Origin: Armatimonadota bacterium
GTDB taxonomy: Bacteria > Armatimonadota > UBA5829
Direction: 5' to 3'
NCBI GenBank assembly: GCA_050948905.1
Contig: JBMNES010000001.1
Location: 2,592,083-2,656,082 of the forward strand
Length of the DNA stretch: 64,000 nucleotides
Each line of letters starts with the position of its first letter. Positions within the stretch are counted from its first letter, which is position 1. The translations under genes and the position numbers were made by a program. Positions 1,659-23,932 of this stretch are shown in pieces. The notes under the pieces were generated by a model, which worked only from the letters and a program-made list of their open reading frames with translations, did not search any database and had not been told where the DNA came from.

Positions 1659-1671
1659 AGACTCACTTCTC

Positions 1672-2880: not shown

Positions 2881-2882
2881 AG

Positions 2883-4016: not shown

Positions 4017-5104
4017 AGTGAACCTCTTTTGCACAAACCCAGGCACTTGGCGGTTTTAAAAAAGAAATATCGCAACGCAGGTGCATAGTGTTTGCGCTTC
4101 TGTTTTGTCGAAAGCGCAATCTCGTATACGCGCTTATAGTTATCCCACATACGCGAAGCAGAAAAATGTTCTTTTATATGTTTAATAGCATTTTCCGAGA
4201 TGAGGTCATAATTCTCTGGTTTTCGAATCCAATTCAGTGCTTCTATGAGGCCTGCTGTTCCGCGCGATCTCTCGTATAAATAGCCAGTGTTTTTATGTTG
4301 CACGACTTCTCCGATGCCACCTACTTTAGGAGCCACCACAGGGCATCCGCAGGCGCCCGCCTCTATCAGACTGAGTCCAAACGATTCGAGTCTCGACGTA
4401 GATAAGACTATTCCCCGACTGCTCCGAACGTCTCTGTAAAACTTTGGCATTTCTCGCCAAGGCTTACGTCGCAATACCACTGCTTCTTTCGGCAGCCAAT
4501 TAGCATACTCGTATTCCTCTGGTGCTCCGTCAACTACGATAAAGTTATAGTTGCCTGCTTCTGGAGTGTTCGCCAACGCAATCACGCCATCAAAGTCCTT
4601 AAGCACGTCGGTGTATCTGCCGATCCATGCAATTATGGGCTTACTAGCAGTGATCTCAGCCTCCTTAGGACTGAAAGTATTGACGTCAATGCCATTTGGT
4701 ATTACCTCAACAGGTTGTGAGACCTTAGGCTGTATGCTTGACGCCGTATATTTCGATACTGCTGTTATACAGTCACTGACTAGGCCACCAGTAAATGTCC
4801 CGTGGCACGACTCGATAACTGCTCCATTAAAACCTGCTCTCTTCAAACATATTTGTGTATTTTTTGCAGCCCCTGATATCACGTGAACCAGGTCATACCC
4901 GTTGGACATCAACAACTCTGTCAATGAATGATGATTTGCAAAATACACCGGGCAAATGCCTTTAAAGTGCTCAGATCCTCCGCAGTCTGCAAAGAAGAAC
5001 GCGTCCGCCTCAACGCCATCTTGGCGTTGTAGTTGAATAAGGGTTGCCATTACGGTTTCAGTGCCGCCATGACCACAGACTGAACCGATATGCAGAATTT
5101 TCAT
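4013..5104 (-). CDS. glycosyltransferase family 4
   Basis: 363 aa; MKILHIGSVCGHGGTETVMATL N-terminus and ESFGLSLIEAGACGCPVVAPKVGG motif; ATGA overlap with downstream start at 5101..5104. Confidence 0.8.
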   Translation of the reverse strand: MKILHIGSVCGHGGTETVMATLIQLQRQDGVEADAFFFADCGGSEHFKGICPVYFANHHSLTELLMSNGYDLVHVISGAAKNTQICLKRAGFNGAVIESCHGTFTGGLVSDCITAVSKYTASSIQPKVSQPVEVIPNGIDVNTFSPKEAEITASKPIIAWIGRYTDVLKDFDGVIALANTPEAGNYNFIVVDGAPEEYEYANWLPKEAVVLRRKPWREMPKFYRDVRSSRGIVLSTSRLESFGLSLIEAGACGCPVVAPKVGGIGEVVQHKNTGYLYERSRGTAGLIEALNWIRKPENYDLISENAIKHIKEHFSASRMWDNYKRVYEIALSTKQKRKHYAPALRYFFFKTAKCLGLCKRGSL

Positions 5105-6609
5105 TGACTCGTTTCCTCAGTAAGTATCGACTGGGGTTGTTTGCGTAGCGATATACAGACTATAGCAACGATATACGGGATTAACGTTATGGCATAACGT
5201 TGTGCACACTCGAACAGTAGACTGGCGAACAAAACTAATGCTAAGCACCAATACAACCAGTGAATGGATCGACGCCCGACAAACACATGCCTTAGCACGT
5301 CCAAACGAGGTTTGATCAACAATAGGAGCATCCATCCACCAAACAGATTTATAACAGAAATCGACATTCTAATTTGCGGATAGGAAAGCTTGGCTGCTCC
5401 TGGTATAGATAAATACTTGACAGGCCAAACGAGCAGGCCACCCAGCATCTTCCCTGTGCGATAAGGAAAAGATTCTACAAACACCCACGGGTGACGAAAT
5501 ATTGCAGACAGCCCTCGTCGAAACCCAATTTTATTCCTAACCAGCGGGTCCGCAACATCTTTTCTCAGTTGTGAATAATGCGATACTGTATAACTTCCCT
5601 GCTGCTCAAACGCTGAACTGGAATTGGCTGAGTAGAAGACCTCACCGCCATTATAAGATATCGGCAATAATTCACCGAGAACTATATAGTTTCTAATCGT
5701 CCAGGGCAAGACTACTATTGTAAAACCAAGCGACAATACTACTACGACCACACTAGCAGCTTTCACACGTCTTGCAAAAGTGAGGTCAAGCCCGACGTTT
5801 AGCACTGCTGCGCTGAAAAAACCTAATAGTTGAATCACAAGCACGGGTCGAAACAAAGCAGCAAGCGCTGTACAACAGCCGGCGGCAAACCACTTCCATA
5901 ATCCCAAGCGGCCGGAAGCCTTAGTATCCGAAAGCAACAGAGCCAATGCCACTAATTGTAGGGCGCAGGCGGGTAATTCAGACAAGCCGACCATCATAAA
6001 CATCGCAATAAGAGGCACTAAGCATAGAATAGTCGCTACCCCTACAATTCTTGAAATTGTGATTCCATTGCAGATTGTTGCCAAAGCAGTTACGAATATC
6101 ACGAGTGATAAGGTATTAACGAATAGAACTGCGCCATTTGCTGATAATCCAAACCTGAGCGGCAAAGCTAGTGCAAACGCCATACCTGGCGGCCGCCACG
6201 CGTCCAAAGTCATCAATCCAGATATGCCGTGTTTGGCAAGATATGTTCCCAGCTTCACATAAGCATGATAGTCGCTGATCTGCTTGAGAAGTAGAAACCT
6301 CTGTAAAAAACCTGCGATTGGAACCGCCACCAAAAGGCCAATAACGGGCTTGATCAATGCAATTGCCGAGTTTAGCGAGCTCCATCGAGCTATTGCTTTT
6401 TTAATCAATGCGTAAACGAATAACACAGCAAGAGCCGCGAACAAAGTGTCATATGGCCCACAATAATAATCCCAGTGAAACGGTAGCAAGCGGGGCAAGA
6501 ATGGCCCTATCGCAAAAAGAATGAGAGTTGATACAAATATGAGCCACAAAACACGCTCGACAATAGTCATCTGCAGTTTTTCTTCTCTGCTCATATCATC
6601 ACTCATCAC
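5101..6609 (-). CDS. polytopic (about 12 TM) membrane protein, putative O-antigen polymerase/ligase-like or GT-C glycosyltransferase
   Basis: 502 aa, almost entirely hydrophobic helices with short loops; located between GT4 genes and pyruvyltransferase in a polysaccharide cluster; no soluble catalytic domain recognisable by eye. Confidence 0.45.
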   Translation of the reverse strand: MMSDDMSREEKLQMTIVERVLWLIFVSTLILFAIGPFLPRLLPFHWDYYCGPYDTLFAALAVLFVYALIKKAIARWSSLNSAIALIKPVIGLLVAVPIAGFLQRFLLLKQISDYHAYVKLGTYLAKHGISGLMTLDAWRPPGMAFALALPLRFGLSANGAVLFVNTLSLVIFVTALATICNGITISRIVGVATILCLVPLIAMFMMVGLSELPACALQLVALALLLSDTKASGRLGLWKWFAAGCCTALAALFRPVLVIQLLGFFSAAVLNVGLDLTFARRVKAASVVVVVLSLGFTIVVLPWTIRNYIVLGELLPISYNGGEVFYSANSSSAFEQQGSYTVSHYSQLRKDVADPLVRNKIGFRRGLSAIFRHPWVFVESFPYRTGKMLGGLLVWPVKYLSIPGAAKLSYPQIRMSISVINLFGGWMLLLLIKPRLDVLRHVFVGRRSIHWLYWCLALVLFASLLFECAQRYAITLIPYIVAIVCISLRKQPQSILTEETSQ

Positions 6610-6617
6610 TGGTGCGT

Positions 6618-7838
6618 TTACAGAACCTCTATTAAATGATCCGCTGCTTTCTGGGCACGCTGTTGCGATTGGCGGACAGGTTCTTCAAGGTCGCGTCTTA
6701 TCTGGTGGCGCATAGCACTCATTAACTTCACTTTTTCTACAAGCATCTCGGGTGTAAGTTGATGGATGGGAATGCACCAATCAGTATGGCCATATATATC
6801 CTGGTTTATACCTGCAGATTTTATGCTGTAGCCAATAGATATTGTCGGCACCAAAGATGATATTGCGGCTATGGTACTGTGGGTTCGCGCGCCGACAAAC
6901 AATGGCAGTTTTGATATGACCCATTTGTATTCTGCGGCATTCATATCATAGGGCAGTATATTAACTCTGCTGCCCCATTGTGGCAAATCGCGACCGACTT
7001 GCAGCATAAATTCGTAGTCGTTGCCGCCATCTACTGTCACGTGTGGCACGAGCAGTATTCTTTCTACGCCTGAATCTAGCAATGCTTTGATGCACTCTGT
7101 GGCCGTCTCTTTCCAGGGATCTGCTCTGAAACGACCGACTATAGGGCTAAGATTGAGGCCGATTGGCGAATTTGCCCAAAATTCCTTCATCTCTGGGGCC
7201 ACGCTCGGCTCAACCGGCTTGAGGAAAAATGCGGGGTCAGCAACTAATTTAACGTTTTCGGTGATACCGAAAGACGCCAGATATTCGACCGTCTTGCTTT
7301 CGCGGGCGAGAATAATGTCGAACTGCCTTAAGTGGCGCATCATTTTGTGCTCGTAAACTGCATCGCCATCTACCGGTGGCCCGATGCTTGCCCCCCACAG
7401 AACTAACGGCTTGCCAGTCTCTTTTAACATTCCATCTAGCAACATATGCTCACGAGGCATGCCGTGGTCCATAGAATAATTATCACCGCCGATTTGCAGC
7501 GCGCAGACGGACTGTTTGATGCCCTCGTACTGGGCGCGAAAGTGGAAATGACGATAATCCGTCGATCTTCTATGCAAAACCCGATAATTCCACCAGGCCA
7601 GGCTGTACTTCGCTGCTGGCATAGAACCGTGCGGACAGTGGACAATTCTATCATCTGTCTCGCGATGCGCGTCTCCAGCAGCATCATCTCCACCAAAGCT
7701 GCTCAATATAAATCTGGAATCATCAAAACGCTGGGACAGTATATGTGCAGTGCCGCGAACAATTGCCTCGCACCCGCGGTTGGAGTAAGGCCCATTGCCG
7801 ACTAAGAGAAATGACTGACTAGAAAACTTACACTTCAT
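6618..7838 (-). CDS. polysaccharide pyruvyl transferase (CsaB/WcaK family)
   Basis: 406 aa; N-terminal FLLVGNGPYSNRGCEAIVRGT matches the PS_pyruv_trans family start motif (ilLvGyyGsnNlGDEail.g). Confidence 0.7.
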   Translation of the reverse strand: MKCKFSSQSFLLVGNGPYSNRGCEAIVRGTAHILSQRFDDSRFILSSFGGDDAAGDAHRETDDRIVHCPHGSMPAAKYSLAWWNYRVLHRRSTDYRHFHFRAQYEGIKQSVCALQIGGDNYSMDHGMPREHMLLDGMLKETGKPLVLWGASIGPPVDGDAVYEHKMMRHLRQFDIILARESKTVEYLASFGITENVKLVADPAFFLKPVEPSVAPEMKEFWANSPIGLNLSPIVGRFRADPWKETATECIKALLDSGVERILLVPHVTVDGGNDYEFMLQVGRDLPQWGSRVNILPYDMNAAEYKWVISKLPLFVGARTHSTIAAISSLVPTISIGYSIKSAGINQDIYGHTDWCIPIHQLTPEMLVEKVKLMSAMRHQIRRDLEEPVRQSQQRAQKAADHLIEVL

Positions 7839-7891: not shown

Positions 7892-9103
7892 TCAACGATA
7901 AGTCCAATCGGCATTAAGCCACACGACACCAAACCTGGGAGCGCCGACGTCTTCTGCAGTTTTCGGAGGCACTACAGTAAGCTCTTCGGAAGTAAACCCG
8001 CTGTCATACATCATAACTCCATAGGCGTCTGCTATTCTCGCTACCAAAGTATATACATCTGGAACCAATGGTAAAGAACTTATCTTAACATCGTAGGAAC
8101 CAGCTCCCGATATATCTCGTCGGTCTCCTTCGAGAATGTTGCTGGTGTGTGCTAGTATTTTCCCCATTCCATCGGTCACAAATATCCCTATCCTCGGCGT
8201 AGCTATAAACTCGGTGGCTTCAAAGTGAATTCTGATATCCATAGGCTCGCCGGCTTCCGCCACCCACTCCACACCGTCCGTCAGATGCTCAAGCTTGGTC
8301 ACCCGGAGTGGTGTAATTGGTATTTCAGTTACATCTTCTCCCGGCCGGGTTTGCCGTATCAATGAGCGCTTGTGCTCGGCTATCAACTCGCGATAAGCTT
8401 TTACAGCACATTCGCCGTCAGATATTGTCTTAATTGAGCCGTGGTCGAGAACAGCCACCCTATCGCAAATGCTAGTCACAGCGCCCATATTATGCGAGAC
8501 GAACACAATGGTTTTCTCAGATGACCTCAGCTCACGCATGCGCTTTGTGCATCTCTCCTGAAACGCGGCATCTCCAACGCTGAGAACCTCATCGACAATC
8601 AAAACCTCAGGGTCTACGTGAGCAGCAACGGCAAACCCCAGGCGAGCATACATCCCGCTGCTATAACGCTTTACAGGGGTGTCTATAAACTTCTCAAGCT
8701 CTGCAAATGCCACGATCTCATCAAACTTGGAGGCTATCTCGCGCTGGGTCATGCCGAGAATTGATCCGTTGAGATATATATTTTCCCTGCCGGTCATCTC
8801 CGGATGAAATCCTGCTCCGACCTCTATAAGAGCCGATACACGCCCCCTGGTGCGGATGCGGCCTTTGGTGGGGTTCATAATCCGGGTCAGCAGCTTCAAC
8901 ATCGTGCTTTTGCCTGCGCCGTTGTGCCCGATGATGCCGATGGCCTCGCCTTGCTTTACCTCAAATGATATGTCCTTGAGCGCCCAGAAGTCCTCTCGTA
9001 CGCGACGTCGCAGCATTCCGCGAGTCAGGTCCGCCAAGTTTTTTGGCCTGTCGTGAGCCAGTATAAACTTTTTCGATACGTTCTCCACCGAAATGGCATT
9101 CAT
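7892..9103 (-). CDS. wzt: ABC transporter ATP-binding protein Wzt/TagH type with C-terminal carbohydrate-binding extension
   Basis: 403 aa; Walker A GHNGAGKST, signature YSSGMYARLGFA, Walker B LIVDEVLSVGD; about 160-aa C-terminal beta-rich domain typical of Wzt O-polysaccharide-binding domains. Confidence 0.85.
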   Translation of the reverse strand: MNAISVENVSKKFILAHDRPKNLADLTRGMLRRRVREDFWALKDISFEVKQGEAIGIIGHNGAGKSTMLKLLTRIMNPTKGRIRTRGRVSALIEVGAGFHPEMTGRENIYLNGSILGMTQREIASKFDEIVAFAELEKFIDTPVKRYSSGMYARLGFAVAAHVDPEVLIVDEVLSVGDAAFQERCTKRMRELRSSEKTIVFVSHNMGAVTSICDRVAVLDHGSIKTISDGECAVKAYRELIAEHKRSLIRQTRPGEDVTEIPITPLRVTKLEHLTDGVEWVAEAGEPMDIRIHFEATEFIATPRIGIFVTDGMGKILAHTSNILEGDRRDISGAGSYDVKISSLPLVPDVYTLVARIADAYGVMMYDSGFTSEELTVVPPKTAEDVGAPRFGVVWLNADWTYR

Positions 9104-9127
9104 TATCTCAACACAACCCCACTACAA

Positions 9128-11569
9128 CTATAGTGATGCGGCCAACTCGCCGCCTTTTTTCCTCTTCAACATTCTGGCAGATATTATAAAATAGCACAGC
9201 AATATAATCGCCGATATGCCGGATACGATAGCACCCAGCTTCAGGCCTGGCGGGAAATAGCGGAACTCGATGTTATGCTGTCCCGCAGGTAGCATCAGGC
9301 CGAGGAACCCTATGTTCACTTTCTCTATTTGTGCCGGCTGGCCGTCGACGAAGGCGCTCCAACCTGCGCCATAAGGTATGCTGAAAAAGACCATACGGGG
9401 CGCATCCAACTCTATTTTTGCCGCAAACCCCGTGCTGTCCGCCGTGTAGTCGGTGCAGGCGTGCTTTTTCATCTCTAAAGCATCGGTCATCCAATCGAAA
9501 TCGTTGCATTTAGCCGGGCCAGATGCGAACTTGTGCATATCACCGCCATATTTCTCTATCTGCTCGTCAGACAAAACAACAGCCTTCAGCATCAGCTTCT
9601 CTATGCAGTCCTTATATTGCGCCATCTGATTTTCGCTGATGTAGGTATCATACGAAAGCCCCATCGGCACATAATATTGATTTTCGTAGATATGCGTATC
9701 TGTTTTTTTTACAAGTTTGTAACCCGGCATCGTAAGAACAAAATCTTCTGGATCAAAATTCACGAAATACTTAACCGAGAGCAGTGAGCGCAGGGCGGGG
9801 CGGTTGAAGGGCATAATTGACGTTACTGCGCCTACTTCGCTGCAGTTGGTTAGATCCTCAAATACAGCGATGTGTTTTGTTCGAATGCTGGTAAACACAT
9901 TAGGCGAACTGACGTTTATAAAAGTGCTGTAATTTCGTATCTCGTGAGGATGGTCTATCCTGAAATAATGTGATTTTCCGGTATCGAGCATATTTTTTTT
10001 ATTTACCACTCTGTTGATTAGGTAATCCACATTTGTAGCTTTGGCACTCTCAACTCCAGTGTTAATTACGTCTCGATTATTCAGCTCAACAAAAAAAGCC
10101 AGGTTTGCGCAGGCTGCTATGGCTACGCAAGTCATTATGAAGCGATGACTAGAATTTTTGAGCAAAATCAAAAACAGCAGAAAATAATTGAGAAAGCAGA
10201 GCGCCCAAGCAGTAACAATGAGATTACGTCCACCCAAATAAGGATCGCCTGTAACAATATCAAACCACCATTGTATCAGCTCAAATTTAAGGAGACTGTG
10301 AAGCTTGGCTAAGACATTTGGGTACAAAGTTACTATCCCAAAAGGGATTGACAATACCCCACAAATTGACAGTGAAATCAGAGCATAGCCACGTAAAACG
10401 CTGTCCTTTAGGGAATCTCGTTGCTCCAAGACCTTTGTTGTGGCAAGTGTTAGAATAAATGCCAAACCAAACCACCATCGAGTATACATCCAGTTGGTAA
10501 ACCCGCTAAAAGCCGCATTCGAAACAGGTATGAAAGATAAGATTAAGCAGGTAAGTATTAAACGAGAGAGCCAGTTTTTGAACCTCGTCAAGTAGACAAA
10601 TACGAAAGCAAATCCAAACAAGGGCAGAAAAATGCCGGTAGAGGTCCAACTGTTCGTTAATGGAATAAAAGCGTGTCGGACTAGGCCTTCCGACGGCATA
10701 AAGAAAACCCGGATTAGCTCGAAGTAGCGCAGAGGCTCGTGAAATATCCATTGCTTTATACTTGCAGCTTGCTCCGTAGTTGCACGAGCACAGTCAAACA
10801 CCATATATATCTTCGGAAATACAACAAAGCTTGATAGAGCAACGCCAAGCAAATAACCTGTTATTATGGCGATTGGCATCCGTCCAAGTTTTTCGGATTT
10901 TGTATTGGTGTAGAAAACTCTAAACACGATATATAGGAAAAGAAACAAGCTGCTGGCCGCGAACATATAGAAACTTGCCAATGTATTGATACAAACTGCA
11001 AACGCAAATAAGGTAAAACCATATCTATGCTGGCGCAGTATCAATTCGATACCAATGATAAGCAGTGGAAACACAGCAACAACATCAGTAAACACGAGGA
11101 ACTGCGTGTTGATTATCGTGTAACCCGAAAAAGTATATAGTAATGCGCCAATAGCGGAATTACGACTTGATACGAACATATTCAGGGCTAGATAAGAAAG
11201 GCAAGCCGCAACCGCAAATTTCAAAATGTTTGTGTAGCCAATAGCCCAAGGCAACCATTTTTCCGGAAATAACATCGTCAGCCAAAAGAATGGGCTGCCA
11301 GATACTAAAGCACCCCCACCCGTACCCAGCCCTACTTTTTGGCTCCACCACGGCGTTCCAGTCATCAGCAGTCGCTTATATTCGAGTATCATAGGAATAA
11401 ATTGTTCGCTGAAGTCGCCACGGATGACATATAGCCCCTTAAACTTCAAAATAGTCGGCAGCATAGCCAGAAGCGCGATTCCGGCAGCCCATAGAGCTAC
11501 AGTCCAGCAGCGGATCGGTTTGGTCCCTTGCTCTATTTCCTGAGGTGTTTGTGTCTCCTGAGTGATCAT
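9128..11569 (-). CDS. YfhO-family integral membrane glycosyltransferase (GT-C like)
   Basis: 813 aa; about 13 N-terminal TM helices, large extracytoplasmic C-terminal domain and terminal TM anchor, the characteristic YfhO topology and size; start ATG abuts stop of wecE-like gene (11569/11570). Confidence 0.6.
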   Translation of the reverse strand: MITQETQTPQEIEQGTKPIRCWTVALWAAGIALLAMLPTILKFKGLYVIRGDFSEQFIPMILEYKRLLMTGTPWWSQKVGLGTGGGALVSGSPFFWLTMLFPEKWLPWAIGYTNILKFAVAACLSYLALNMFVSSRNSAIGALLYTFSGYTIINTQFLVFTDVVAVFPLLIIGIELILRQHRYGFTLFAFAVCINTLASFYMFAASSLFLFLYIVFRVFYTNTKSEKLGRMPIAIITGYLLGVALSSFVVFPKIYMVFDCARATTEQAASIKQWIFHEPLRYFELIRVFFMPSEGLVRHAFIPLTNSWTSTGIFLPLFGFAFVFVYLTRFKNWLSRLILTCLILSFIPVSNAAFSGFTNWMYTRWWFGLAFILTLATTKVLEQRDSLKDSVLRGYALISLSICGVLSIPFGIVTLYPNVLAKLHSLLKFELIQWWFDIVTGDPYLGGRNLIVTAWALCFLNYFLLFLILLKNSSHRFIMTCVAIAACANLAFFVELNNRDVINTGVESAKATNVDYLINRVVNKKNMLDTGKSHYFRIDHPHEIRNYSTFINVSSPNVFTSIRTKHIAVFEDLTNCSEVGAVTSIMPFNRPALRSLLSVKYFVNFDPEDFVLTMPGYKLVKKTDTHIYENQYYVPMGLSYDTYISENQMAQYKDCIEKLMLKAVVLSDEQIEKYGGDMHKFASGPAKCNDFDWMTDALEMKKHACTDYTADSTGFAAKIELDAPRMVFFSIPYGAGWSAFVDGQPAQIEKVNIGFLGLMLPAGQHNIEFRYFPPGLKLGAIVSGISAIILLCYFIISARMLKRKKGGELAASL

Positions 11570-12718: not shown

Positions 12719-13783
12719 TTAAATATCTATCACATCGACGTATATAGGATTATCGGACAATATAGCGTCACCGTCCAGCGTTTTAACATATAATAATAAA
12801 TGGACATCATTTTGGAACACATTTCGCAGCGCTTGAGTTACAGGTCCACCGATTTCCGAAGCCCCACAAATCGCATAGACTCCGGCGTCTAAGGCACGAT
12901 TGTTTACAGCGTTTACAAGCGTTCGCAGATCGTCAGCCTCGCGATATCCCGCCAGCATCAACCTGTATTGCTCCATTACCTGTCCCGGTTTGAGCACTTT
13001 CGGCACCGGAGTGAAAAGCCGGGCAGCGTCCAAAACGAATGAGGCAACGCGCATCCTGGCGTCTAAAGACCGAACCGTGGTCCTCACCACTTTGCCCCTG
13101 TCCCAATATCCCAAACAGGCCGCTATCTGCCCGTCCTCTTCCAACACCAGCACGTTTTCATAAGAAAACCCCGGCACTCTCTCAATGAACTCAGCAAGGC
13201 TATCTGCCGTATACGGCGAATACAAATCGTGCCCCTGCCAGGTGGCGTTTATCAACCCTGCTACTACTTCCAAATCATCACTCTTAAGGCACCGAACGGA
13301 CGATTCTCTGGCATTGACACTGTTTTTATACACCAGTTTGTACCTGGCACGCAAAGTCTTTTTCAAGCCATAGCCAGCCCTTTCGAACAAGGCTTTAGAA
13401 GGGTCGTTGGAATCCATTATGTAAACATATGATATGGCGGTTCCGTGCTGGCGGAAATAATCCTCCACATGCTCAATCAACGCACCTGCTACACCCTTCC
13501 GGCGATGATTCGGCGAGGTATAATAATTCCAGGAATAACCCACAATAGTCGATTTTCCGGCGACATCCACAGCCCTGACAGCACAACTCGCTGCGCCCAT
13601 TGGTTCGTTTTCTTCGTTGTGGGCTACGAATACTTTGCTCTCGGGATAGACGTCTGTTCGCCAGAAGTAATCAGGTGAATTGACTGAAGATATTGAACCA
13701 CCTTCTCCAAAGCTGGCCTGACCTTGTATAGTCTGCAATATTTGATTATCCGCCGGCGCAGCTTCACGAATCTTAATCTTCAA
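12719..13783 (-). CDS. tandem GNAT-fold acyltransferase
   Basis: 354 aa; N-terminal half has canonical GNAT motif A (HRRKGVAGALIEHVEDYFRQHG), C-terminal half is a second, degenerate GNAT-like domain; 11-nt overlap with upstream flippase-like gene. Confidence 0.6.
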   Translation of the reverse strand: MKIKIREAAPADNQILQTIQGQASFGEGGSISSVNSPDYFWRTDVYPESKVFVAHNEENEPMGAASCAVRAVDVAGKSTIVGYSWNYYTSPNHRRKGVAGALIEHVEDYFRQHGTAISYVYIMDSNDPSKALFERAGYGLKKTLRARYKLVYKNSVNARESSVRCLKSDDLEVVAGLINATWQGHDLYSPYTADSLAEFIERVPGFSYENVLVLEEDGQIAACLGYWDRGKVVRTTVRSLDARMRVASFVLDAARLFTPVPKVLKPGQVMEQYRLMLAGYREADDLRTLVNAVNNRALDAGVYAICGASEIGGPVTQALRNVFQNDVHLLLYVKTLDGDAILSDNPIYVDVIDI

Positions 13784-14714
13784 GCCTCGCTTTCGTCTCC
13801 TTCACAACGCATTTCCATACAGATAAATGAACCAGCGACAAAAGCACTGTCAAAAGCCCATAAGCCCTTAAAACCAACGCCCCCGCCTGGGCTTGAGGGG
13901 CCGTATTGCCGAAGTGCATAAGAAACTCCGTGACACCGACCTCGCTGACTCCCAGGCTGCCGGGTATGCAAGACAGCAGGCCTATGATGGTTATCACAGA
14001 CACAATCGCTGTCATTTTCTCAAACCCCGGATCAAGGGATAAGCTGGCCAGAGCAATTTGCCAGCCAAGGATCACTACAGCCCACGATATCGCGCTTACA
14101 AGAAAAACTACCGTGATTGTGGCGGCATCCCCGGCGCACGATTTCATCGCATCCATACACTCGCCGATTTTGCCTCTAACACCAGCCTTGTTTATGACCA
14201 GCAATGCGATTATCGCCGCGCCCACAATCCCCGCAGCGGCAGTATAAACCACCACCGGGTTCATCGATATACTAAGTCCACGAAACACGCTAAAGGCAGC
14301 CAGACCCGCCACTATAACCATATCGATTATCCGCTCTATTATAAAAGAGCCGTAACCCGGCGCACGATCCAGCAGGCCATATCGCTTAAGGAACTCTGTG
14401 CGCAATATCTCTCCGGACCTCAACGGCGTCAGAGTCGCAAGGCCTACGGTAATGGCGGTGCACATATACAAAGAGACCAGGCTGATCTTTACGCCCATCT
14501 TCCGCAGCAGTATATACCACCTCAGAGCACGCAAAACCCAATAGACCAGTATCGATACACCGCAACCGCATATCAAAAGCCAGAGGTTTGTCTGCAGCAG
14601 TATCCTGCCGATTGCCGCCCATTGGAAACTTCGTGCCACATACCACACGCACGCGGCAAATAACACCCCTCCGACTATCCAGACAATAGCGCGTTTTGCA
14701 GACAGATTGGACAT
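13773..14714 (-). CDS. flippase-like membrane protein (lysylphosphatidylglycerol synthase TM-region family, UPF0104)
   Basis: 313 aa, 8 predicted TM helices; N-terminal AKRAIVWIVGGVLFAACVWYVARSFQW...LRALRWYILLRKMGVKISL pattern typical of the MprF flippase-domain family. Confidence 0.6.
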   Translation of the reverse strand: MSNLSAKRAIVWIVGGVLFAACVWYVARSFQWAAIGRILLQTNLWLLICGCGVSILVYWVLRALRWYILLRKMGVKISLVSLYMCTAITVGLATLTPLRSGEILRTEFLKRYGLLDRAPGYGSFIIERIIDMVIVAGLAAFSVFRGLSISMNPVVVYTAAAGIVGAAIIALLVINKAGVRGKIGECMDAMKSCAGDAATITVVFLVSAISWAVVILGWQIALASLSLDPGFEKMTAIVSVITIIGLLSCIPGSLGVSEVGVTEFLMHFGNTAPQAQAGALVLRAYGLLTVLLSLVHLSVWKCVVKETKARLED

Positions 14715-16854: not shown

Positions 16855-17703
16855 CTAGATCGTTTCTGCGAATGCCGGTTCCAGGCGTTTGAAGTTGCGA
16901 TAGCCTATTATCAAAATCGTAACCGACGCCACCGCCGCTATTCCCACATAGTTCCACATTGGCGCCTGCCCTTCCAAAACACACTTCCTGACCCCATCGA
17001 TCAGCGGAGACATCGGATTGAGCATATACAAACCGAGATACTTCTTAGGTATCAGCGTGACAGGATACACAATCGGAGAAGCATACATCCAAACCTGCAA
17101 GAGCAGCGGCATCACGTGCCGGATATCCCTGTAAAACAGGTTCCAACTGGACAATATAAACGACACGCCCAGCATCAGACACATCTGAATCATCAACAGC
17201 GGAATCGCCAAAAGCGCCATCGGGCTGAGGTGAACTTTATAGTATATAATCAGCGGCAGCAATACTATGAGGCCCAGCGCCAGGTCCACCACCTTGCCTA
17301 AAATAGCAGATATCGGGAAGACCTCGCGTGGGAAATATATCTTGGTGATAAGGTTGAAGTTGGCTACCAGGCACTCAGAGCCTGCAGACATCCCGCCGGA
17401 GAAGAAAGTCCAGGGCAGCATAGCAATGTACGCGAAGATGGGATAAGGTATGTTGCCGGTGTCTATTCTAACAATGAACGACATCACGACCGTAAAAACA
17501 ATCGTCATCGCCATCGGCTGCAGTAGCGCCCACATAATGCCGAGCACCGACTGTTTATATCGCCCTCTGATGTCGCGGCGAGTCAGGCTTGCCACCAACT
17601 CCCTGTGCTGCCACAGGGCTCTTAACGCGCCACGCTTTTCTTCCTCCGGCCACTCCTCCTGAACTAATTCGGAAACTACACTATCCTCTACAACCTGCTC
17701 CAA
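16855..17703 (-). CDS. wzm: ABC-2 type polysaccharide export permease
   Basis: 282 aa; LWQHRELVASLTRRDIRGRYKQSVLGIMWALLQPMAMTIVF is the conserved Wzm N-terminal motif; 6 TM helices. Confidence 0.8.
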   Translation of the reverse strand: MEQVVEDSVVSELVQEEWPEEEKRGALRALWQHRELVASLTRRDIRGRYKQSVLGIMWALLQPMAMTIVFTVVMSFIVRIDTGNIPYPIFAYIAMLPWTFFSGGMSAGSECLVANFNLITKIYFPREVFPISAILGKVVDLALGLIVLLPLIIYYKVHLSPMALLAIPLLMIQMCLMLGVSFILSSWNLFYRDIRHVMPLLLQVWMYASPIVYPVTLIPKKYLGLYMLNPMSPLIDGVRKCVLEGQAPMWNYVGIAAVASVTILIIGYRNFKRLEPAFAETI

Positions 17704-17737: not shown

Positions 17738-20044
17738 CTATTCGCTTACTTTGCTGTCAACACCACCGCTGCCGATCGGCTTGCCGTCAGTTGCCGACCC
17801 ATCAATAGAACCACCGCTGCCAGGTAGTGCGAAATCTGCATAATATCTTGAATAAAAGTGACAGCTATCGACAGTATCCGACGGCATTCTATTCACTGCA
17901 ACACCGATAATATTCGCCCGCGCTTTCCTCAGCAGGTCGCGAGTGTGGACCTCGGTTCCCCGTGGCACCTGGTTTGCTGAGACGACCATAAGCACCGCAT
18001 CCACCCAATTGGCCAACATAGGGCTATCGCTAAATACAATCGTGCTGGGCGTATCGAACAGCACCAGATCACACTTATCCTGCAGCGAACTCACTAACTC
18101 GTGCATCGCCTCCGATCCTAACAGCTCAGAAGGGTTCATAGGCTGCGGCCCCGCTGGGATTACGATCAGGTTTTCCACCTCAGTCGTATGACAGGCATCA
18201 ACCAGAGTCCCTTTGCCCTGCAGCAACGTACTCAACCCGGCAGCGTTCGGTATATCGAAAAACCGATGCAAACTGGGCTTACGCATATCCGCATCTATAA
18301 GGATCACTCGTTTGCCGATCTGCGCCAACGCTATGGCTAAATTGCACACCGTCGTAGTAGCGCCCTGACCAGGTCTCCCAGTGGCGATCATCAACGTACG
18401 GAAGGGATTGTCTCTAAGCGCAAACAACACATTGGTGCGCAATATTTTATATGATTCGGCCATTGGTGAAAGAGGATAAAGATGAGTCAGCCTCGGAAGC
18501 ATCCCATCCCTCACCACCAACTGCGGCGTCACGCCGAGCACAGGTAGTTCCAGCATTTTTTCAACATCGGACGCGTGGCGCATTCGGTTGTCGATGGAAT
18601 CCAGCCAGACTGCCGCCAACACACCAACGATCAACGATAGCACAAAGCCATAGACCAGCAAGGATTTTCGCGACGGCCCCTGCACTATAGGCCCCTGTGA
18701 ATAGTGAGCCCACCCGTAAGGTACTATGGATCCTGTGCGAGTAAACTCCTTTTCGGCGATAACGGCCTGGTCGTGTTTCTCCGACAGCATTTTGTAAGTC
18801 GCCTCGGCTTGCGCATATTCCGTCATCAACTCAACATACTGTGGCTGTGAATCGGAGAGTTTCCTGACCCTTTCCTCGGCCTCCGCAAGGCTATTATCTA
18901 CTGCCTGGAGCCTGGCTTGTGCTGTAGCTAAGGAATATTGAGCGTCGGATTTCTTTCGGAGAAGGGCCTGGTGAATCTCGTTAAGCACAGGCGATGAGTA
19001 CGATGGGCCCTCTTCGGCAATCTTATCCTTGAGTATCTCGATTCGCTTCTCCGCCGCCTGATAGAGTTCGTGTTTTGGTTTATAGCGCTGGGCGATCATT
19101 CGCAAATCGACTTCTGCCTGCATCAGTTGTTCTTCGAGCTTAACCGCGCGCGGGTTCATCTCCGCCGGCAGCAGTTGATCGGAGACAAGAGGTTGAGTAA
19201 CCATCTGTAAATCAACGTTAGCAGATGCGGCCTGAGCCTCTTTAACTGCAGCTTCAGCCTCAGACTTCGCTGCCCTCAAGCCAGCGATAGAACTAATGGC
19301 CGTCCCGGTCTCCGCATCAATAGAGACCACCTTATGATTGTCCTTATATTGAGCGATCTCTTCACGCAAGACATCAAGCTTGACCTTGGCTTCCTGTTTG
19401 CTGGTTTTAAGGAAGTGCTCGTATGTGCGAGTATCCGCCCGGCTCTTATCCTGATAGCTCTCAGCAAAGGCCACCGCCACCGCATTGGCAAGGAAAGGGG
19501 AATCGTGCCCGTTTGGCATCTTAATTGTCAATCGTATGATATCTGTCGTAGTACCCTTTTCTCCGACAGTCTCACTTCGTACAGGAGTTACTTCAAGCAC
19601 GCTGCTCCAGTCTTGATGTCGCAGCGGCTTGCCCGGCTCTATCATTATTGTAGTCAAAGGTCTATTTGGTCGCGGAGGCAGTTCCGAATCCGGCACATCC
19701 GGCCCCACCAGGGCCCGCAGTTGCTTCTTCTGCTGGTCGGGGGTCTTTTCAAGAAATGCGCGCGCTCTATCGTAGACTTCACCCTGCTGCGCTAGAATGA
19801 TGAGGTTGCTTAGAATAACAGTTCTGTCAGGACCCGTGCCGCGGCGAGTGCTGGCCGTTGTAACTCCGCCCTGCATTACCTGCATACTTGGCGATACATA
19901 AGCTGAAGCCTCGTAGACAATTCTAGGCTTAGGTGCAGCGATTATAATGACCAAAAGGGTAATAGCCACGACCCCAAGAATCATCCATCTTCTCTGCCTG
20001 ATCACTCTTATGGTATGCCAAAAGTTCATAACAGAAATGACCAA
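17738..20044 (-). CDS. Wzc/GumC-like polysaccharide co-polymerase with C-terminal CpsD/BY-kinase-like P-loop domain (Walker A lysine replaced)
   Basis: 768 aa; N-terminal TM, long coiled-coil periplasmic region, second TM, then ATGRPGQGATTTVCNLAIALAQIGKRVILIDADMRKPS (Walker A-like without Lys; Walker A' ILIDADMR; Walker B DLVLFDTPS). Confidence 0.75.
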   Translation of the reverse strand: MVISVMNFWHTIRVIRQRRWMILGVVAITLLVIIIAAPKPRIVYEASAYVSPSMQVMQGGVTTASTRRGTGPDRTVILSNLIILAQQGEVYDRARAFLEKTPDQQKKQLRALVGPDVPDSELPPRPNRPLTTIMIEPGKPLRHQDWSSVLEVTPVRSETVGEKGTTTDIIRLTIKMPNGHDSPFLANAVAVAFAESYQDKSRADTRTYEHFLKTSKQEAKVKLDVLREEIAQYKDNHKVVSIDAETGTAISSIAGLRAAKSEAEAAVKEAQAASANVDLQMVTQPLVSDQLLPAEMNPRAVKLEEQLMQAEVDLRMIAQRYKPKHELYQAAEKRIEILKDKIAEEGPSYSSPVLNEIHQALLRKKSDAQYSLATAQARLQAVDNSLAEAEERVRKLSDSQPQYVELMTEYAQAEATYKMLSEKHDQAVIAEKEFTRTGSIVPYGWAHYSQGPIVQGPSRKSLLVYGFVLSLIVGVLAAVWLDSIDNRMRHASDVEKMLELPVLGVTPQLVVRDGMLPRLTHLYPLSPMAESYKILRTNVLFALRDNPFRTLMIATGRPGQGATTTVCNLAIALAQIGKRVILIDADMRKPSLHRFFDIPNAAGLSTLLQGKGTLVDACHTTEVENLIVIPAGPQPMNPSELLGSEAMHELVSSLQDKCDLVLFDTPSTIVFSDSPMLANWVDAVLMVVSANQVPRGTEVHTRDLLRKARANIIGVAVNRMPSDTVDSCHFYSRYYADFALPGSGGSIDGSATDGKPIGSGGVDSKVSE

Positions 20045-20256: not shown

Positions 20257-21066
20257 TTAGCAGGCGCCGCGTTTGAGCAAGACCGCAGGGATAGTGGAGA
20301 GCAAAATCCACACGTCCAGCAACACGCTCCGCTGTTCGATATAGAGCATATCCATTTTTACTCGCTCTTCATAGGATGTGTTGCTGCGGCCCCTTGTCTG
20401 CCATAAGCCGGTGAGGCCAGGAGTTACTGTCTTGAACTGTTCGATGCACGGGCCATAAATATCGACCTCATCGGCATGAATCGGCCTTGGGCCTACAAAT
20501 GCCATGTCGCCAAGGATGACGTTAATTAACTGCGGCAGTTCGTCGAGGCTGGATTTCCTTAAAAAACTGCCGACTCTGGTGACCCGTGGATCGGATTTGA
20601 GTTTGCAACAGACGTAATAATTGCGCTTCAACTCTTCGTCTCTAGCCAGAATGCCCTCAGCATCGTCGACCATCGAACGGAACTTTAACATATCGAAGCT
20701 CTTTCCGTTTTTGCCGATCACCCGTCTTTTGAAAAGTATAGGGCCAGGGCCAGAAGCTCTTACGAGAACAGCGGCAATCAGGAAGACCGGAGCCGACACC
20801 AGCAGCAGCGAAGCGGCCATAGTCACATCAATCGTGCGCTTGATGACATGATAACATGCGCCTACTCGCCGTTCCAACTCGGCCAGTCGCCGCTGGCGTC
20901 GCTTTATGACGACAATTGCGCCAAATCCTATAGGGGCCAAAACTGCAGCAGATACTTCTGGAACAGTCGCAATGTTGTTATCAGCATACACAATGTGTAC
21001 ACCGATTAACAGCAATAGCGCCGACAGTATCAAAATTGACGACAGATGTCGCAAAGCTTCCCTCAT
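20257..21066 (-). CDS. polyprenyl-phosphate sugar phosphotransferase (bacterial sugar transferase, small PglC/WbaP C-domain type)
   Basis: 269 aa; KRTIDVTMAASLLLVSAPVFLIAAVLV re-entrant helix, DELPQL, FVGPRP and PGLTG motifs diagnostic of initiating phosphoglycosyltransferases; about 70-aa N-terminal extension with two hydrophobic segments. Confidence 0.85.
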   Translation of the reverse strand: MREALRHLSSILILSALLLLIGVHIVYADNNIATVPEVSAAVLAPIGFGAIVVIKRRQRRLAELERRVGACYHVIKRTIDVTMAASLLLVSAPVFLIAAVLVRASGPGPILFKRRVIGKNGKSFDMLKFRSMVDDAEGILARDEELKRNYYVCCKLKSDPRVTRVGSFLRKSSLDELPQLINVILGDMAFVGPRPIHADEVDIYGPCIEQFKTVTPGLTGLWQTRGRSNTSYEERVKMDMLYIEQRSVLLDVWILLSTIPAVLLKRGAC

Positions 21067-21342: not shown

Positions 21343-22350
21343 CTATTGCCTGTCGGCGTACCACTCTTCGCTGAAACGCCGGTGCTCCGCGCTGTCTTTG
21401 ATCGTGCGCCACCATTGTTGGTTTTCCATATACCAGCGAATAGTATCACGCATTCCTTGCTGGAAATCGTGTGTCCGCTGCCATCCTAAAGCCAGGAGCT
21501 TGCTGGAATCTAGCGCGTAGCGGCGGTCGTGTCCCGGCCGATCCTCTACGTGCTTTATAAGGCGCTCGTCCTTGCCGGTAACCTCAAGAATCATCTTGAC
21601 AATCTCGACGTTGGGTCTTTGATTGTCGCCGCCGATATTGTATATCTCCCCGGCAACACCCTTGTCCATCACGGTTTCGATGCCAGTGCAGTGGTCGAGC
21701 ACATGCAGCCAGTCCCGAATCTGCATTCCGTCGCCATATACAGGCAGAGATATGTCGTCTATGGCGTTGCTGACGAACAGCGGCACGAGCTTTTCAGGCT
21801 GTTGGTATGGGCCGTAGGTGTTGGAACCGCGGGTGACCATAACAGGCACGCCATAGGTGCGCCAGTATGCCCTCGCAAGCAACTCCCCGCCGGTTTTGCT
21901 CGCCGAATATGGACTGTTAGGGGAAACTGGATCGGTTTCTTTTGAGAAGCCCTCCTCGACGTCGCCGTATACTTCGTCTGTTGAGATTTGTATGAATTTC
22001 TCGAGCCCGTATTCTCTGGCGGCCTCCATTAAAGTGTAGACGCCCATCACATCGGTCGTGATAAACGCCTCCGGATCATAAATTGACCGGTCCACGTGGC
22101 TTTCAGCTGCGAAGTTTATGACAATATCAGCGTCAGCGACTGGCTTTGCGACATCTTCCCTGCAGCGAATATCCCCTTTGATAAAACTAAAACGACTGTC
22201 GTCTCTGACATCTTCCAGGTTCTCAAGATGCCCCGCGTAAGTGAGCGCGTCAAGAACGACGATCTCGCAGTCGTCACGCGTGTTGAGAATATGCCTGACA
22301 AAATTGCTTCCAATAAACCCGGCCCCGCCGGTCACAAGTAGCTTCTTCAA
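21343..22350 (-). CDS. rfbB: dTDP-glucose 4,6-dehydratase
   Basis: 335 aa; MKKLLVTGGAGFIGSNFVRHIL..., extended SDR with YSASK catalytic motif (PYSASKTGGELL). Confidence 0.9.
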   Translation of the reverse strand: MKKLLVTGGAGFIGSNFVRHILNTRDDCEIVVLDALTYAGHLENLEDVRDDSRFSFIKGDIRCREDVAKPVADADIVINFAAESHVDRSIYDPEAFITTDVMGVYTLMEAAREYGLEKFIQISTDEVYGDVEEGFSKETDPVSPNSPYSASKTGGELLARAYWRTYGVPVMVTRGSNTYGPYQQPEKLVPLFVSNAIDDISLPVYGDGMQIRDWLHVLDHCTGIETVMDKGVAGEIYNIGGDNQRPNVEIVKMILEVTGKDERLIKHVEDRPGHDRRYALDSSKLLALGWQRTHDFQQGMRDTIRWYMENQQWWRTIKDSAEHRRFSEEWYADRQ

Positions 22351-22389: not shown

Positions 22390-22845
22390 CTAGACAAACT
22401 TGATGTCCCAGTTGTACGGAATCTTATCGCTGTTCCACACCTCGCGATACTCGTCCGGGTCCTTCGAATCGTACGGTCGGGTGGGATAATTAATCAGCAG
22501 CGAGGGCTCCGTGCCAATGGTTTTGTAGCCGTGCATAGTGCCGACGGGGATCTTCAGCAGAATCGGGTTATTTTCGCCGAGAAAGAACTCGTTTACCTCG
22601 CCGTAAGTGGCGGAATCCTCGCGGCAATCATATACAACCGCCTTCACCATCCCTTTTACTACAACCCAAAGATCGTGCTGTTTTCTATGATAATGCCACG
22701 CACGAATGACCCCCGGATAGTTGAGAGATACATAACACTGCCCAAAATGCTCGAATATTTCGTCGTCCTCGCGCAGCATCTCCATAAGATAGCCGCGCTC
22801 ATCTGCGTGAGGCTTGAGCTGTTTGATCTCGATTCCATCTATCAT
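22390..22845 (-). CDS. RmlC-like cupin (dTDP-4-keto-6-deoxyhexose 3,5-epimerase family or related ketoisomerase), short form
   Basis: 151 aa; DERGYLMEMLRE...AWHYHRKQ resembles RmlC DERGFF...GLHYQ block but protein is 30-40 aa shorter than canonical RmlC; ATGA overlap with rmlA. Confidence 0.55.
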   Translation of the reverse strand: MIDGIEIKQLKPHADERGYLMEMLREDDEIFEHFGQCYVSLNYPGVIRAWHYHRKQHDLWVVVKGMVKAVVYDCREDSATYGEVNEFFLGENNPILLKIPVGTMHGYKTIGTEPSLLINYPTRPYDSKDPDEYREVWNSDKIPYNWDIKFV

Positions 22846-23909
22846 CAGATTACACTGACCTCGCTGTTATCCCCCAGCATCATTCGATAAGCCTTTGGGG
22901 TTTTGTTATTGCGTGAAATGTGAACGTTCTTGCCAATCAGGCTATCAGCCATTCTGCTGCCAATATCCAGCACCTGGGAGTCCTCCAGAATTATGCTGTG
23001 CTCTATCTCGCTGCCACGGATTATTGAACGATCGTTAATAGAGGTATATGGGCCGATAAAGGCGTTCTCAACAACGCAGTCCTCGCCGATTATCGCAGGG
23101 CCGCGAATGCAACTGTTGACTATCCTGCTGCCCTTACTGGCGACTACCCTGCCCTCGATAGTGGACGATTCGTCGATTTCACCGTCGAGCTGAGTCTTAA
23201 GCCCGTCTAGGATCATTCGATTGGCCTCGAGCATATCTTCCAGCTTGCCGGTGTCTTTCCACCAGCCCGTAATGATATGGCTTTCGACCCGATAACCTTT
23301 GTCAATTAAATACTGAATTGCGTCGGTAATCTCAAGTTCGCCTCGCGCGGATGGCTTGATAGCGTTTACGGCCTCAAAGACGTGATGATCGAACATATAA
23401 ACGCCGACCAAGGCCAGGTCCGAGGGTGGGTTTTCAGGTTTTTCGACCAGCCGCACCACCCTGCCCTGTTCAATCTCCGCTACCCCGAACTCACGCGCAT
23501 TGGGCACGTGAGCAAGCAGGATCTGTGAGTTGGCCTCGGTTTGGGTGTATTCATCGACAAACGGCTTGACACCATCTTTTATTAAATTGTCTCCGAGAAA
23601 CATAACAAACGGCTCGCCCGCCATAAAATCCTCGGATATCTTCACCGCATGCGCCAAACCCAATGGAGCGTCCTGTTGAATGTAGGTTACTTTTACGCCA
23701 AAGCGGGAGCCGTCGCCGACCGCTGCTCGAATCTCCTCGTGAGTATCTCCGACGATAATGCCGATATCATCGATCCCAGCGTCACGAATGGCTTCTATCG
23801 CATAAAACAGAATAGGCTTATTCGCCACAGGCACAAGCTGTTTGGCGCTCGTATGGGTGATAGGACGAAGTCTGGTGCCTTTGCCGCCGCTGAGAATAAG
23901 GGCCTTCAT
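22845..23909 (-). CDS. rmlA: glucose-1-phosphate thymidylyltransferase, long form with C-terminal left-handed beta-helix
   Basis: MKALILSGGKGTRLRPITHTSAKQLVPVANKPILFYAIE...; ATG at 23909 preceded by GGAGGAG; the longer MEEQ start at 23921 lies inside that SD. Confidence 0.9.
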   Translation of the reverse strand: MKALILSGGKGTRLRPITHTSAKQLVPVANKPILFYAIEAIRDAGIDDIGIIVGDTHEEIRAAVGDGSRFGVKVTYIQQDAPLGLAHAVKISEDFMAGEPFVMFLGDNLIKDGVKPFVDEYTQTEANSQILLAHVPNAREFGVAEIEQGRVVRLVEKPENPPSDLALVGVYMFDHHVFEAVNAIKPSARGELEITDAIQYLIDKGYRVESHIITGWWKDTGKLEDMLEANRMILDGLKTQLDGEIDESSTIEGRVVASKGSRIVNSCIRGPAIIGEDCVVENAFIGPYTSINDRSIIRGSEIEHSIILEDSQVLDIGSRMADSLIGKNVHISRNNKTPKAYRMMLGDNSEVSVI

Positions 23910-23932
23910 TTGCTCCTCCACTTATTACCTAA

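Follow-up and report, generated by a model that had tools for sequence, protein, structure and literature searches.

Background

Glycosylation systems in which a GT-A glycosyltransferase makes a sugar linked to undecaprenyl phosphate (Und-P, or C55-P), a flippase moves it across the membrane and a GT-C glycosyltransferase transfers it outside the membrane are established (PMC8035078). Here, we analyze a 64-kb window (the whole stretch of contig JBMNES010000001.1 from an uncultured Armatimonadota bacterium presented above), and focus on six tightly packed genes that we label D to I in order of transcription: a GT2 glycosyltransferase (D), an ATP-grasp ligase (E), a membrane protein of the MprF-flippase type (F), a tandem-GNAT protein (G), a WecE-type aminotransferase (H) and a YfhO-family GT-C protein (I). 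A preliminary description of F and G had proposed that the two might be the separated halves of an MprF enzyme. We consider it probable instead that the six genes constitute a multi-component transmembrane glycosylation module, similar to the Arn and Gtr systems and lying within an ABC (ATP-binding cassette) transporter-dependent surface-polysaccharide cluster, in which F and G are pathway neighbours rather than enzyme halves.

Close counterparts, such as the CsbB/GtcA/YfhO and GtrB/GtrA/GtrC systems, resemble the locus in combining a membrane-anchored GT2, here predicted to form a C55-P-sugar, with a translocase encoded separately and with a GT-C protein of the YfhO type, all encoded with the genes for the target polymer (PMC8035078). 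They differ from it in that the flippase slot here is occupied by a PF03706/MprF-type protein rather than a GtrA- or Wzx-type one, and in that genes for tailoring the amino sugar (for a WecE-like aminotransferase, an ATP-grasp protein and a GNAT) are part of this module. The Arn pathway (PmrHFIJKLM), which adds aminoarabinose to lipid A, follows the same logic, in which an aminotransferase installs an amine that is then N-acylated, an ArnC-type enzyme loads the sugar onto Und-P, and the lipid-linked sugar is flipped and passed on by a GT-C enzyme; ArnC is the best NCBIfam match of the GT2, and H also matches ArnB. In contrast to Arn, however, the precursor here would be a dTDP-6-deoxyhexose rather than a UDP-pentose, a GNAT and an ATP-grasp protein stand where Arn has the formyltransferase ArnA, a deacylase like ArnD is missing, PF03706 and YfhO proteins replace ArnE/F and ArnT, respectively, and the acceptor is probably a polysaccharide.

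Other relevant systems are those built around the MprF translocase domain. MprF itself shares with F the N-terminal translocase fold and the Pfam family, whereas the F/G pair has no DUF2156 synthase domain, G looks like an acyl-CoA-type GNAT and F stands alone. The domain family to which F belongs has been described as ubiquitous under the name PplT, and fusions are frequent, with partners that include glycosyltransferases of the GT-A or GT-B type, methyltransferases and O-antigen ligases (bioRxiv 10.1101/2022.03.11.483950). HexSDF of C. difficile (PMC10128005) and GpgSDF of P. aeruginosa (PMC12713373) combine, as here, a stand-alone MprF-flippase-domain protein with a glycosyltransferase and an enzyme that remodels the amine of a lipid amino sugar; those systems, however, use GT4/MGDG-type transferases acting on glycerolipids together with a deacetylase, as opposed to the ArnC-like GT2, GT-C, aminotransferase, ATP-grasp and GNAT proteins of this locus. 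Finally, MprF-flippase-domain proteins (arCOG00899) adjoining AglD-like GT2 and PMT/STT3-like GT-C proteins have been predicted for archaea from conserved gene neighbourhoods (PMC5898192), and this trio is shared with our locus, although the archaeal version is dolichol-based, often has the flippase domain fused to the GT2 and lacks ATP-grasp, aminotransferase and GNAT genes.

Results

A stand-alone MprF-type domain is the candidate flippase

The assignment of F (313 amino acids, aa) as an MprF-flippase-type transmembrane (TM) protein, made in the preliminary description, was borne out by family models and by structure prediction. F matches Pfam family PF03706 (LPG_synthase_TM) over its full length (E 4e-35; 122 bits, cut-off 33) and NCBIfam model TIGR00374, "flippase-like domain-containing protein" (76 bits, cut-off 43). 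Its score against the full-length MprF model NF033480 is 29.9 bits (cut-off 600), with an alignment covering only positions 4-284 of the 841 in the model, and the synthase-proximal TM helices of MprF are absent from F. An AlphaFold model of F, built from ten homologues (predicted local distance difference test score, pLDDT, 83; predicted template modelling score, pTM, 0.80), matched five MprF cryo-EM structures in the PDB and nothing else (7duw, 7f47, 9j8q, 9j8s and 9goe; template modelling score TMq 0.63-0.70), the best being 7duw at 0.70 and 7f47 at 0.66 and the next unrelated match falling to 0.19. Searches of PDB chains by sequence, with F alone and with a 10-sequence profile, returned no match, and F is therefore tied to MprF by the Pfam and NCBIfam models and the fold rather than by a PDB sequence search. 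On these models, F is a stand-alone MprF-type translocase domain with putative translocation activity. Neither the cluster nor the set of small multi-TM open reading frames (ORFs) across the whole window yielded a member of the GtrA or Wzx families, leaving F as the sole flippase candidate.

The tandem-GNAT protein resembles N-myristoyltransferases in its predicted fold

The label "tandem GNAT" for G (354 aa) likewise proved correct, as its AlphaFold model (built from 43 sequences; pLDDT 89.4, pTM 0.88) contains two successive halves, at residues ~1-150 and ~163-335, in each of which the secondary-structure elements follow the GNAT order. The two halves are unequal in sequence. The only region matched in Pfam is a GNAT domain at residues 39-138 (PF00583; 62 bits, cut-off 21), and the C-terminal half searched alone had no Pfam match even at E 10. 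Among G and 57 relatives (n=58), the coenzyme A (CoA) pyrophosphate-binding motif R94-x-x-G97-x-A99 of the N-terminal half is strongly conserved (R94 in 55/58, G97 in 55/58, A or G at position 99 in 54/58), and N126 is invariant (58/58). The preliminary description had named a clear match to an acetyl-CoA-dependent sugar N-acetyltransferase, with CoA motifs intact in both halves, as a finding that would tell against a split MprF; we found the motif intact in the N-terminal half, while the equivalent loop of the C-terminal half lacks its glycines.

Comparisons with known structures point in the same direction. When PDB chains were searched with a profile of the G family, the matches were to GNATs that depend on acetyl-CoA: YpeA (2e-12), AAC(6'), phosphinothricin acetyltransferases and N-terminal acetyltransferases, in every case through the N-terminal half. 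A Foldseek search of the PDB with the G model, proposed earlier as a means of recognizing an MprF or FemX relative, gave N-myristoyltransferases (NMTs) for all of the top 50 matches (E 4e-15 to 7e-14, TM score 0.60-0.68, 8-12% identity), and MprF chains were present neither among these nor among the 60 best profile matches. Since the PDB fold library presumably contains entries for MprF, FemX, MshD and WecD, any match to one of these would rank below E 7e-14. Pfam searches across the family (58 sequences, E 0.1 or better) recovered Acetyltransf_1 in 58/58, weak matches to Acetyltransf_6 (PF13480) in 10/58 (best E 1.8e-5) and weak matches to NMT_C in 9/58 (best E 1.4e-3), with no NMT domain match for G of the window itself, and detected neither DUF2156/LPG_synthase_C (PF09924) nor FemAB (PF02388) in any of the 58.

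Taken together, the CoA motif restricted to the N-terminal half, the NMT fold and the lack of DUF2156 and FemAB matches suggest for G the NMT arrangement rather than the aminoacyl-tRNA-dependent MprF/FemX type. We interpret G as a predicted acyl-CoA-type transferase whose N-terminal half looks active and whose degenerate C-terminal half probably binds the acceptor; the conserved acyl-CoA motif argues against aminoacyl-tRNA as its donor. NMTs share with G the tandem GNAT organization, a CoA-binding N-terminal half and a degenerate C-terminal half that in G is predicted to bind the acceptor, although identity is only ~8-12% and nothing points to a long acyl chain.

A word-indexed search with G recovered only three close homologues, and an exhaustive profile search recovered 774 at E 1e-3 or better, of which 76 reached E 1e-30. 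Most are full-length proteins of ~350 aa; the family occurs in bacteria and in Methanosarcinales, the latter contributing many members. One relative at 35% identity (L014:3026-6411) lies between genes for a DUF3419 (BtaA-like) protein and a LuxE acyl-protein synthetase, with two nitrogenase-like oxidoreductase genes further on, a lipid- or acyl-type context unlike that of the window.

F and G are neighbours in an ordinary operon

Both ORFs were confirmed at their expected coordinates, with an ATG start for F and a TTG start for G preceded by GGAG 13 nt upstream (5'). Homologues of both proteins at E < 1e-100 with synteny kept in other assemblies indicate that both are real genes, and a protein identical to F (100%) is on record from an Armatimonadota metagenome-assembled genome. 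The 11-nt overlap reported earlier is also real, as F ends in GAA GAT TAA with its stop codon at 13775-13773 and the TTG of G occupies 13783-13781. The overlap had been taken as a sign of translational coupling, and this did not hold up: along the series from D to I, D and E overlap by 17 nt, E and F lie 6 nt apart, F and G overlap by 11 nt, G and H lie 15 nt apart and H and I abut with 0 nt between them, and the F-G junction in relatives is a 19-nt overlap, a 2-nt gap or an 18-nt gap. Because other junctions of the operon are equally tight and the F-G spacing varies among relatives, the overlap is ordinary operon packing, and we rejected coupling as a mark of any special partnership between the two proteins.

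We next consider whether F and G occur together elsewhere, a check that the preliminary description had suggested. The six-gene order (GT2, ATP-grasp, PF03706, GNAT, WecE, YfhO) is kept in relatives whose G proteins are 93%, 62%, 62% and 47% identical to that of the window, and F-G pairing is found only in this one Armatimonadota-lineage cluster, at a G identity of 47% or more. Among distant relatives of G (23-37% identity; Methanolobus, Methanosarcina and four bacterial contigs), all six sampled are without a PF03706 neighbour and lie in unrelated contexts. Scanning a genome collection with F returned 2 loci only, both close relatives, and scanning metagenomes returned 60 further loci, which lie on short metagenomic contigs and were annotated with profiles of the window proteins. 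Neighbours were counted at the 12 non-redundant F loci with at least 2.5 kb on each side (F relatives at 28-43% identity), where a G-family GNAT was present in 1/12, this being the near-identical relative of the window itself, and absent from the other 11.

These observations bear directly on the split-MprF proposal, in which G would be the aminoacyl-transferase half acting on a membrane lipid, F would flip the product and the overlap would ensure stoichiometric co-translation. The resemblance that prompted it is genuine as far as it goes: the genes follow the order of the MprF domains, F has the MprF TM fold, and G is a tandem GNAT like the MprF synthase domain. Nevertheless, G retains an acyl-CoA motif, its family yields neither DUF2156 nor FemAB, its 50 best fold matches are NMTs, F corresponds to an MprF stretch without the synthase-proximal helices, the overlap is not conserved, and the pairing is missing in distant relatives of either protein. 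We regard a split MprF as already largely refuted, and its truth as highly improbable.

Partner enzymes and a predicted pathway

Family models for the remaining four proteins suggest a route from nucleotide sugar to exported polymer. For the GT2 protein D, the best NCBIfam matches are ArnC (167 bits, cut-off 529) and PgfS (106 bits, cut-off 500), and a hydropathy scan shows ~3 hydrophobic segments; its homology to ArnC and PgfS is clear, and its acceptor is predicted to be a C55-P lipid. E, the ATP-grasp ligase that the preliminary description had correctly placed directly upstream of F, has as its nearest PDB relatives PurD-type proteins and L-amino-acid ligases, enzymes whose reaction links an amine to a carboxylate that typically belongs to an amino acid. 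The WecE neighbour downstream of G was also confirmed: H scores 575 bits against NF008687 (cut-off 375) and 541 bits against TIGR02379 (cut-off 435), with ArnB matched in addition, and by these above-cut-off equivalog matches it is a WecE-type sugar 4-aminotransferase. I matches YfhO (PF09586) at 231 bits (cut-off 28.5) as well as PgfM2 and PgfM1 in NCBIfam, and by family model is a transferase of the GT-C fold.

The pathway that we favour, each step of which is drawn from homology and gene context, would begin with dTDP-4-keto-6-deoxyglucose supplied by RmlA and RmlB, which H would aminate at C4 to give a dTDP-4-amino-4,6-dideoxyhexose. The amine would then be N-acylated, with E probably attaching an amino acid or other carboxylate as an amide and G then capping, from acyl-CoA, a free amine that sits either on the sugar itself or on the newly attached residue. 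D would load the sugar onto undecaprenyl phosphate, F would bring the lipid-linked sugar to the outer leaflet by means of its MprF translocase fold, and the YfhO protein would attach it to the polymer exported by the Wzm/Wzt-type transporter. Precedent for such a product exists in Qui4N (4-amino-4,6-dideoxyglucose), which is known to bear acetyl, N-acetylglycyl or acyl-alanyl groups (PMC3210612). One plausible scheme has E aminoacylating the amine of the sugar and G acetylating the alpha-amine so introduced, a group that methyltransferases would modify in other lineages; alternatively, G may acylate the sugar amine directly, in a role like that of WecD, and the data are equally consistent with both.

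This second option is close to the alternative raised in the preliminary description, namely that G is a WecD-like N-acetyltransferase acting on the WecE product. An N-acyltransferase in a WecE pathway does fit better than a split MprF, and WecD/RffC offers a parallel for N-acylation downstream of WecE; G is not, however, a member of the WecD family, as no WecD/RffC model appeared among its 19 NCBIfam matches at E 0.01 or better, of which the best were AAC(6') and generic GNAT models, all under their cut-offs. We accordingly rejected G as a WecD orthologue. The earlier idea of a modified lipid that is subsequently flipped fared similarly, in that modification and flipping of a lipid-linked sugar suits the gene context while its split-MprF framing does not.

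Several considerations weigh against the Arn/Gtr-like pathway. The functions of its components rest on homology and context, sequence does not reveal in which order the ATP-grasp, GNAT and GT2 proteins would act, and D scores well under the ArnC equivalog cut-off. The acceptor and acyl donor of G are putative, and we found no characterized member of its family in the searches made. For F, no stand-alone PF03706 protein has proven flippase activity, GpgF being unverified (PMC12713373), and HexF is dispensable for synthesis of its lipid (PMC10128005). Moreover, no stand-alone PF03706 protein is known to handle polyprenyl-phosphate sugars, and a GtrA-type flippase gene could lie elsewhere in the genome, beyond the window.

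A related concern is the cargo of F. It might be a glycerolipid rather than an Und-P-sugar, in keeping with the glycolipid or phospholipid translocation or scrambling proposed for HexF, GpgF and E. coli YbhN/PplT, or F might be an accessory membrane partner of the GT2. Every PF03706 protein studied is linked to glycerolipids (MprF; HexSDF, PMC10128005; GpgSDF, PMC12713373; PplT/ClsB, bioRxiv 10.1101/2022.03.11.483950), and P. aeruginosa MprF is reported to be a promiscuous scramblase (PMC11980842). The gene context argues otherwise, as the partner of F is a GT2 of the ArnC/GtrB/PgfS type rather than a GT4/MGDG-type lipid glycosyltransferase, a GT-C, a user of polyprenyl-phosphate sugar donors, follows here as in related loci, and the module sits in a polysaccharide cluster carrying dTDP-sugar genes. 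A glycerolipid cargo or accessory role therefore seems to us quite improbable.

The module recurs in environmental metagenomes with variable tailoring genes

Although G is confined to close relatives of the locus, other components accompany F over much greater distances. At the 12 well-flanked loci described above, a D-like GT2 was near F in 11 (in the twelfth, a GT2 lies ~8 kb away), a WecE-like aminotransferase in 10, an ATP-grasp gene in 8, an S-adenosylmethionine (SAM)-dependent methyltransferase in 7 and a WbqC-family gene in 3. Where annotatable, the large polytopic proteins that follow the aminotransferase in F-relative loci are GT-C proteins (PMT_2, PIG-V-like). The conserved partners of F are thus a GT2, an ATP-grasp (or WbqC) protein, an aminotransferase and a GT-C, and G would be a lineage-specific, replaceable tailoring enzyme in a variable slot that holds methyltransferases in related modules.

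Among F relatives at 31-40% identity, the layouts include GT2, ATP-grasp, PF03706, methyltransferase, DegT and a large membrane protein, in that order, and another that runs WbqC, GT2, epimerase, PF03706 and methyltransferases. One module (L038, L047, L049, L052, L063 and others; e.g., L063:6780-16888) appears repeatedly in metagenomes from soil, peat and freshwater. It has a D-like GT2, an ATP-grasp protein and PF03706, then a second and divergent member of the DegT family, a SAM methyltransferase and a WecE-like aminotransferase, and ends with GT-C proteins (PMT_2, PIG-V-like); the literature searched held no description of this GT2/ATP-grasp/PF03706 module. Elsewhere, a WbqC-family protein (PF08889) adjoins F and the GT2, with no ATP-grasp gene nearby (L018:2168-3004, L023, L034, L062, L064 and L072). 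WbqC and ATP-grasp proteins may be alternative enzymes for one step, and our literature search on PF03706 together with WbqC found nothing useful on function. The 62%-identity relative (L001-L004; e.g., L001:2712-7576 and 8796-10040) carries a tandem pair of YfhO paralogues as well as a gene for GH88, compared with one YfhO and no GH88 in the window.

The association of the ATP-grasp gene with F raises another possibility concerning where the amine is modified. ATP-grasp and F form the most consistently adjacent pair, found together in 16/27 non-redundant loci with upstream sequence (ATP-grasp gene ≤4 kb upstream or ≤5 kb downstream of F), down to ~28% F identity. Such a pair could carry out, in line with a secondary idea of the preliminary description, a tRNA-independent, ATP-dependent aminoacylation on the lipid itself: the GT2 would make an Und-P-4-amino-sugar, the ATP-grasp protein would aminoacylate it at the membrane and F would flip it, with G capping the amine or being peripheral, thereby creating a functional analogue of MprF from different parts. 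The amino-acid-to-amine chemistry of the PurD and L-amino-acid ligase relatives of E suits this scheme, and in the Arn pathway the amine is also remodelled on a lipid-linked sugar. Yet the adjacency of ATP-grasp and F includes the GT2 equally, and a plain operon would look alike; E has no membrane segments and its relatives use soluble substrates; WbqC takes the place of ATP-grasp at some loci; and assembly of the known N-aminoacyl amino sugars is generally placed at the nucleotide-sugar stage. On balance, we consider aminoacylation on the lipid doubtful. The same low likelihood attaches to a broader conjecture in which the widely distributed trio of GT2, ATP-grasp protein and MprF-type translocase, accompanied by a sugar aminotransferase and usually by a GT-C, would constitute an uncharacterized pathway: ATP, in place of aminoacyl-tRNA, would drive the aminoacylation of an Und-P amino sugar, and a polyprenyl-specialized MprF-fold translocase would flip the product, tuning the charge or chemistry of surface glycans. 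G would then be the first member to be studied of an NMT-like tandem-GNAT family of prokaryotes that acts on this cargo.

The surrounding polysaccharide cluster

F and G belong to a polysaccharide cluster encoded on a single strand (~474 to 23921, minus strand), whose genes are listed in order of transcription in Table 1.

Table 1 Genes of the surface-polysaccharide cluster in order of transcription, with window coordinates
Gene and predicted product	Position	Strand	Supporting match
RmlA-long (precursor supply)	22845-23921	-	TIGR01208 500 bits, cut-off 320
Short RmlC-like cupin, 151 aa	22390-22845	-	rmlC 60 bits, below cut-off; weak FdtA
RmlB, dTDP-glucose 4,6-dehydratase	21343-22350	-	TIGR01181 462 bits, cut-off 365
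Bac_transf polyprenyl glycosylphosphotransferase, predicted to initiate main polymer	20257-21066	-	PF02397 E 2e-58
Chain-length/tyrosine-kinase protein, Wzc-like	17738-20044	-	
ABC-2 (Wzm-like) permease of polymer exporter	16855-17703	-	PF01061; galactan/KpsM permease models
D: membrane-anchored GT2, ArnC/GtrB/PgfS-like candidate polyprenyl-phosphate sugar synthase, 312 aa	15904-16842	-	PF00535
E: ATP-grasp carboxylate-amine ligase, 399 aa	14721-15920	-	ATP-grasp_4, ATP-grasp_3, weak LAL_C2
F: stand-alone MprF-flippase-type (PF03706/PplT) membrane protein, candidate translocase, 313 aa	13773-14714	-	PF03706
G: tandem-GNAT acyl-CoA N-acyltransferase, candidate amine-capping enzyme, 354 aa	12719-13783	-	PF00583
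H: WecE-type dTDP-4-keto-6-deoxyhexose 4-aminotransferase, 377 aa	11570-12703	-	NF008687, TIGR02379
I: YfhO-family GT-C glycosyltransferase, candidate extracytoplasmic transferase, 813 aa	9128-11569	-	PF09586
Wzt/TagH-like ABC ATPase of polymer exporter	7892-9103	-	PF00005, weak Wzt_C; TagH/Wzt models
Pyruvyl transferase	6618-7838	-	
Polytopic protein, 502 aa, unannotated	5101-6609	-	
Four further glycosyltransferases	474-5104	-	

No RmlD is present beside RmlA, the cupin and RmlB, and should the cupin between RmlA and RmlB act as an epimerase or ketoisomerase, a different amino sugar would result. The cluster mixes two classical export routes, having a Wzm/Wzt-type ABC exporter together with a Wzc-like kinase and a WbaP-type initiating transferase, and it contains no recognizable Wzx or Wzy. 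The 502-aa polytopic protein has ~11 hydrophobic segments and no match in Pfam or NCBIfam, is kept at the same position in relatives (496 aa in L005) and could be an unrecognized GT-C, polymerase or ligase of the cluster. Outside the cluster, the window also encodes a GH20 hexosaminidase with a CBM9 domain (949 aa, 28768-31617, minus strand) and a NorB-type oxidase with an N-terminal cytochrome c-like domain (771 aa, 57395-59710, minus strand).

Discussion

Stand-alone MprF-flippase-domain proteins beside glycosyltransferases have already been described in the form of HexF (PMC10128005), GpgF (PMC12713373) and PplT. What appears new here is a bacterial YfhO-type system in which an MprF-type domain is predicted to fill the slot of GtrA or Wzx, a conserved ATP-grasp partner of F that is widespread in environmental metagenomes, and a lineage-specific, NMT-like tandem GNAT. 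The G family, which counts ~76 clusters (E 1e-30 or better), is itself of interest as an uncharacterized group of tandem GNATs; the known structures that it most resembles are those of eukaryotic N-myristoyltransferases. In genome annotation, the locus shows that a flippase-like gene beside a GNAT gene is not evidence for a split MprF.

We found no experimental study of the GT2, ATP-grasp and translocase trio of soil, peat and freshwater metagenomes in the literature, and the trio provides a defined gene set in which to seek ATP-dependent N-aminoacylation of amino sugars. The role of flippase in GT2/GT-C systems has so far been given to GtrA- and Wzx-type proteins, and to MprF-type domains only by prediction for archaeal AglD. 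If the Arn/Gtr-like assignment of this module is true, MprF-type translocase domains would not be limited to glycerolipids, and would serve also as the flippases of bacterial GT2/GT-C surface-glycan decoration.

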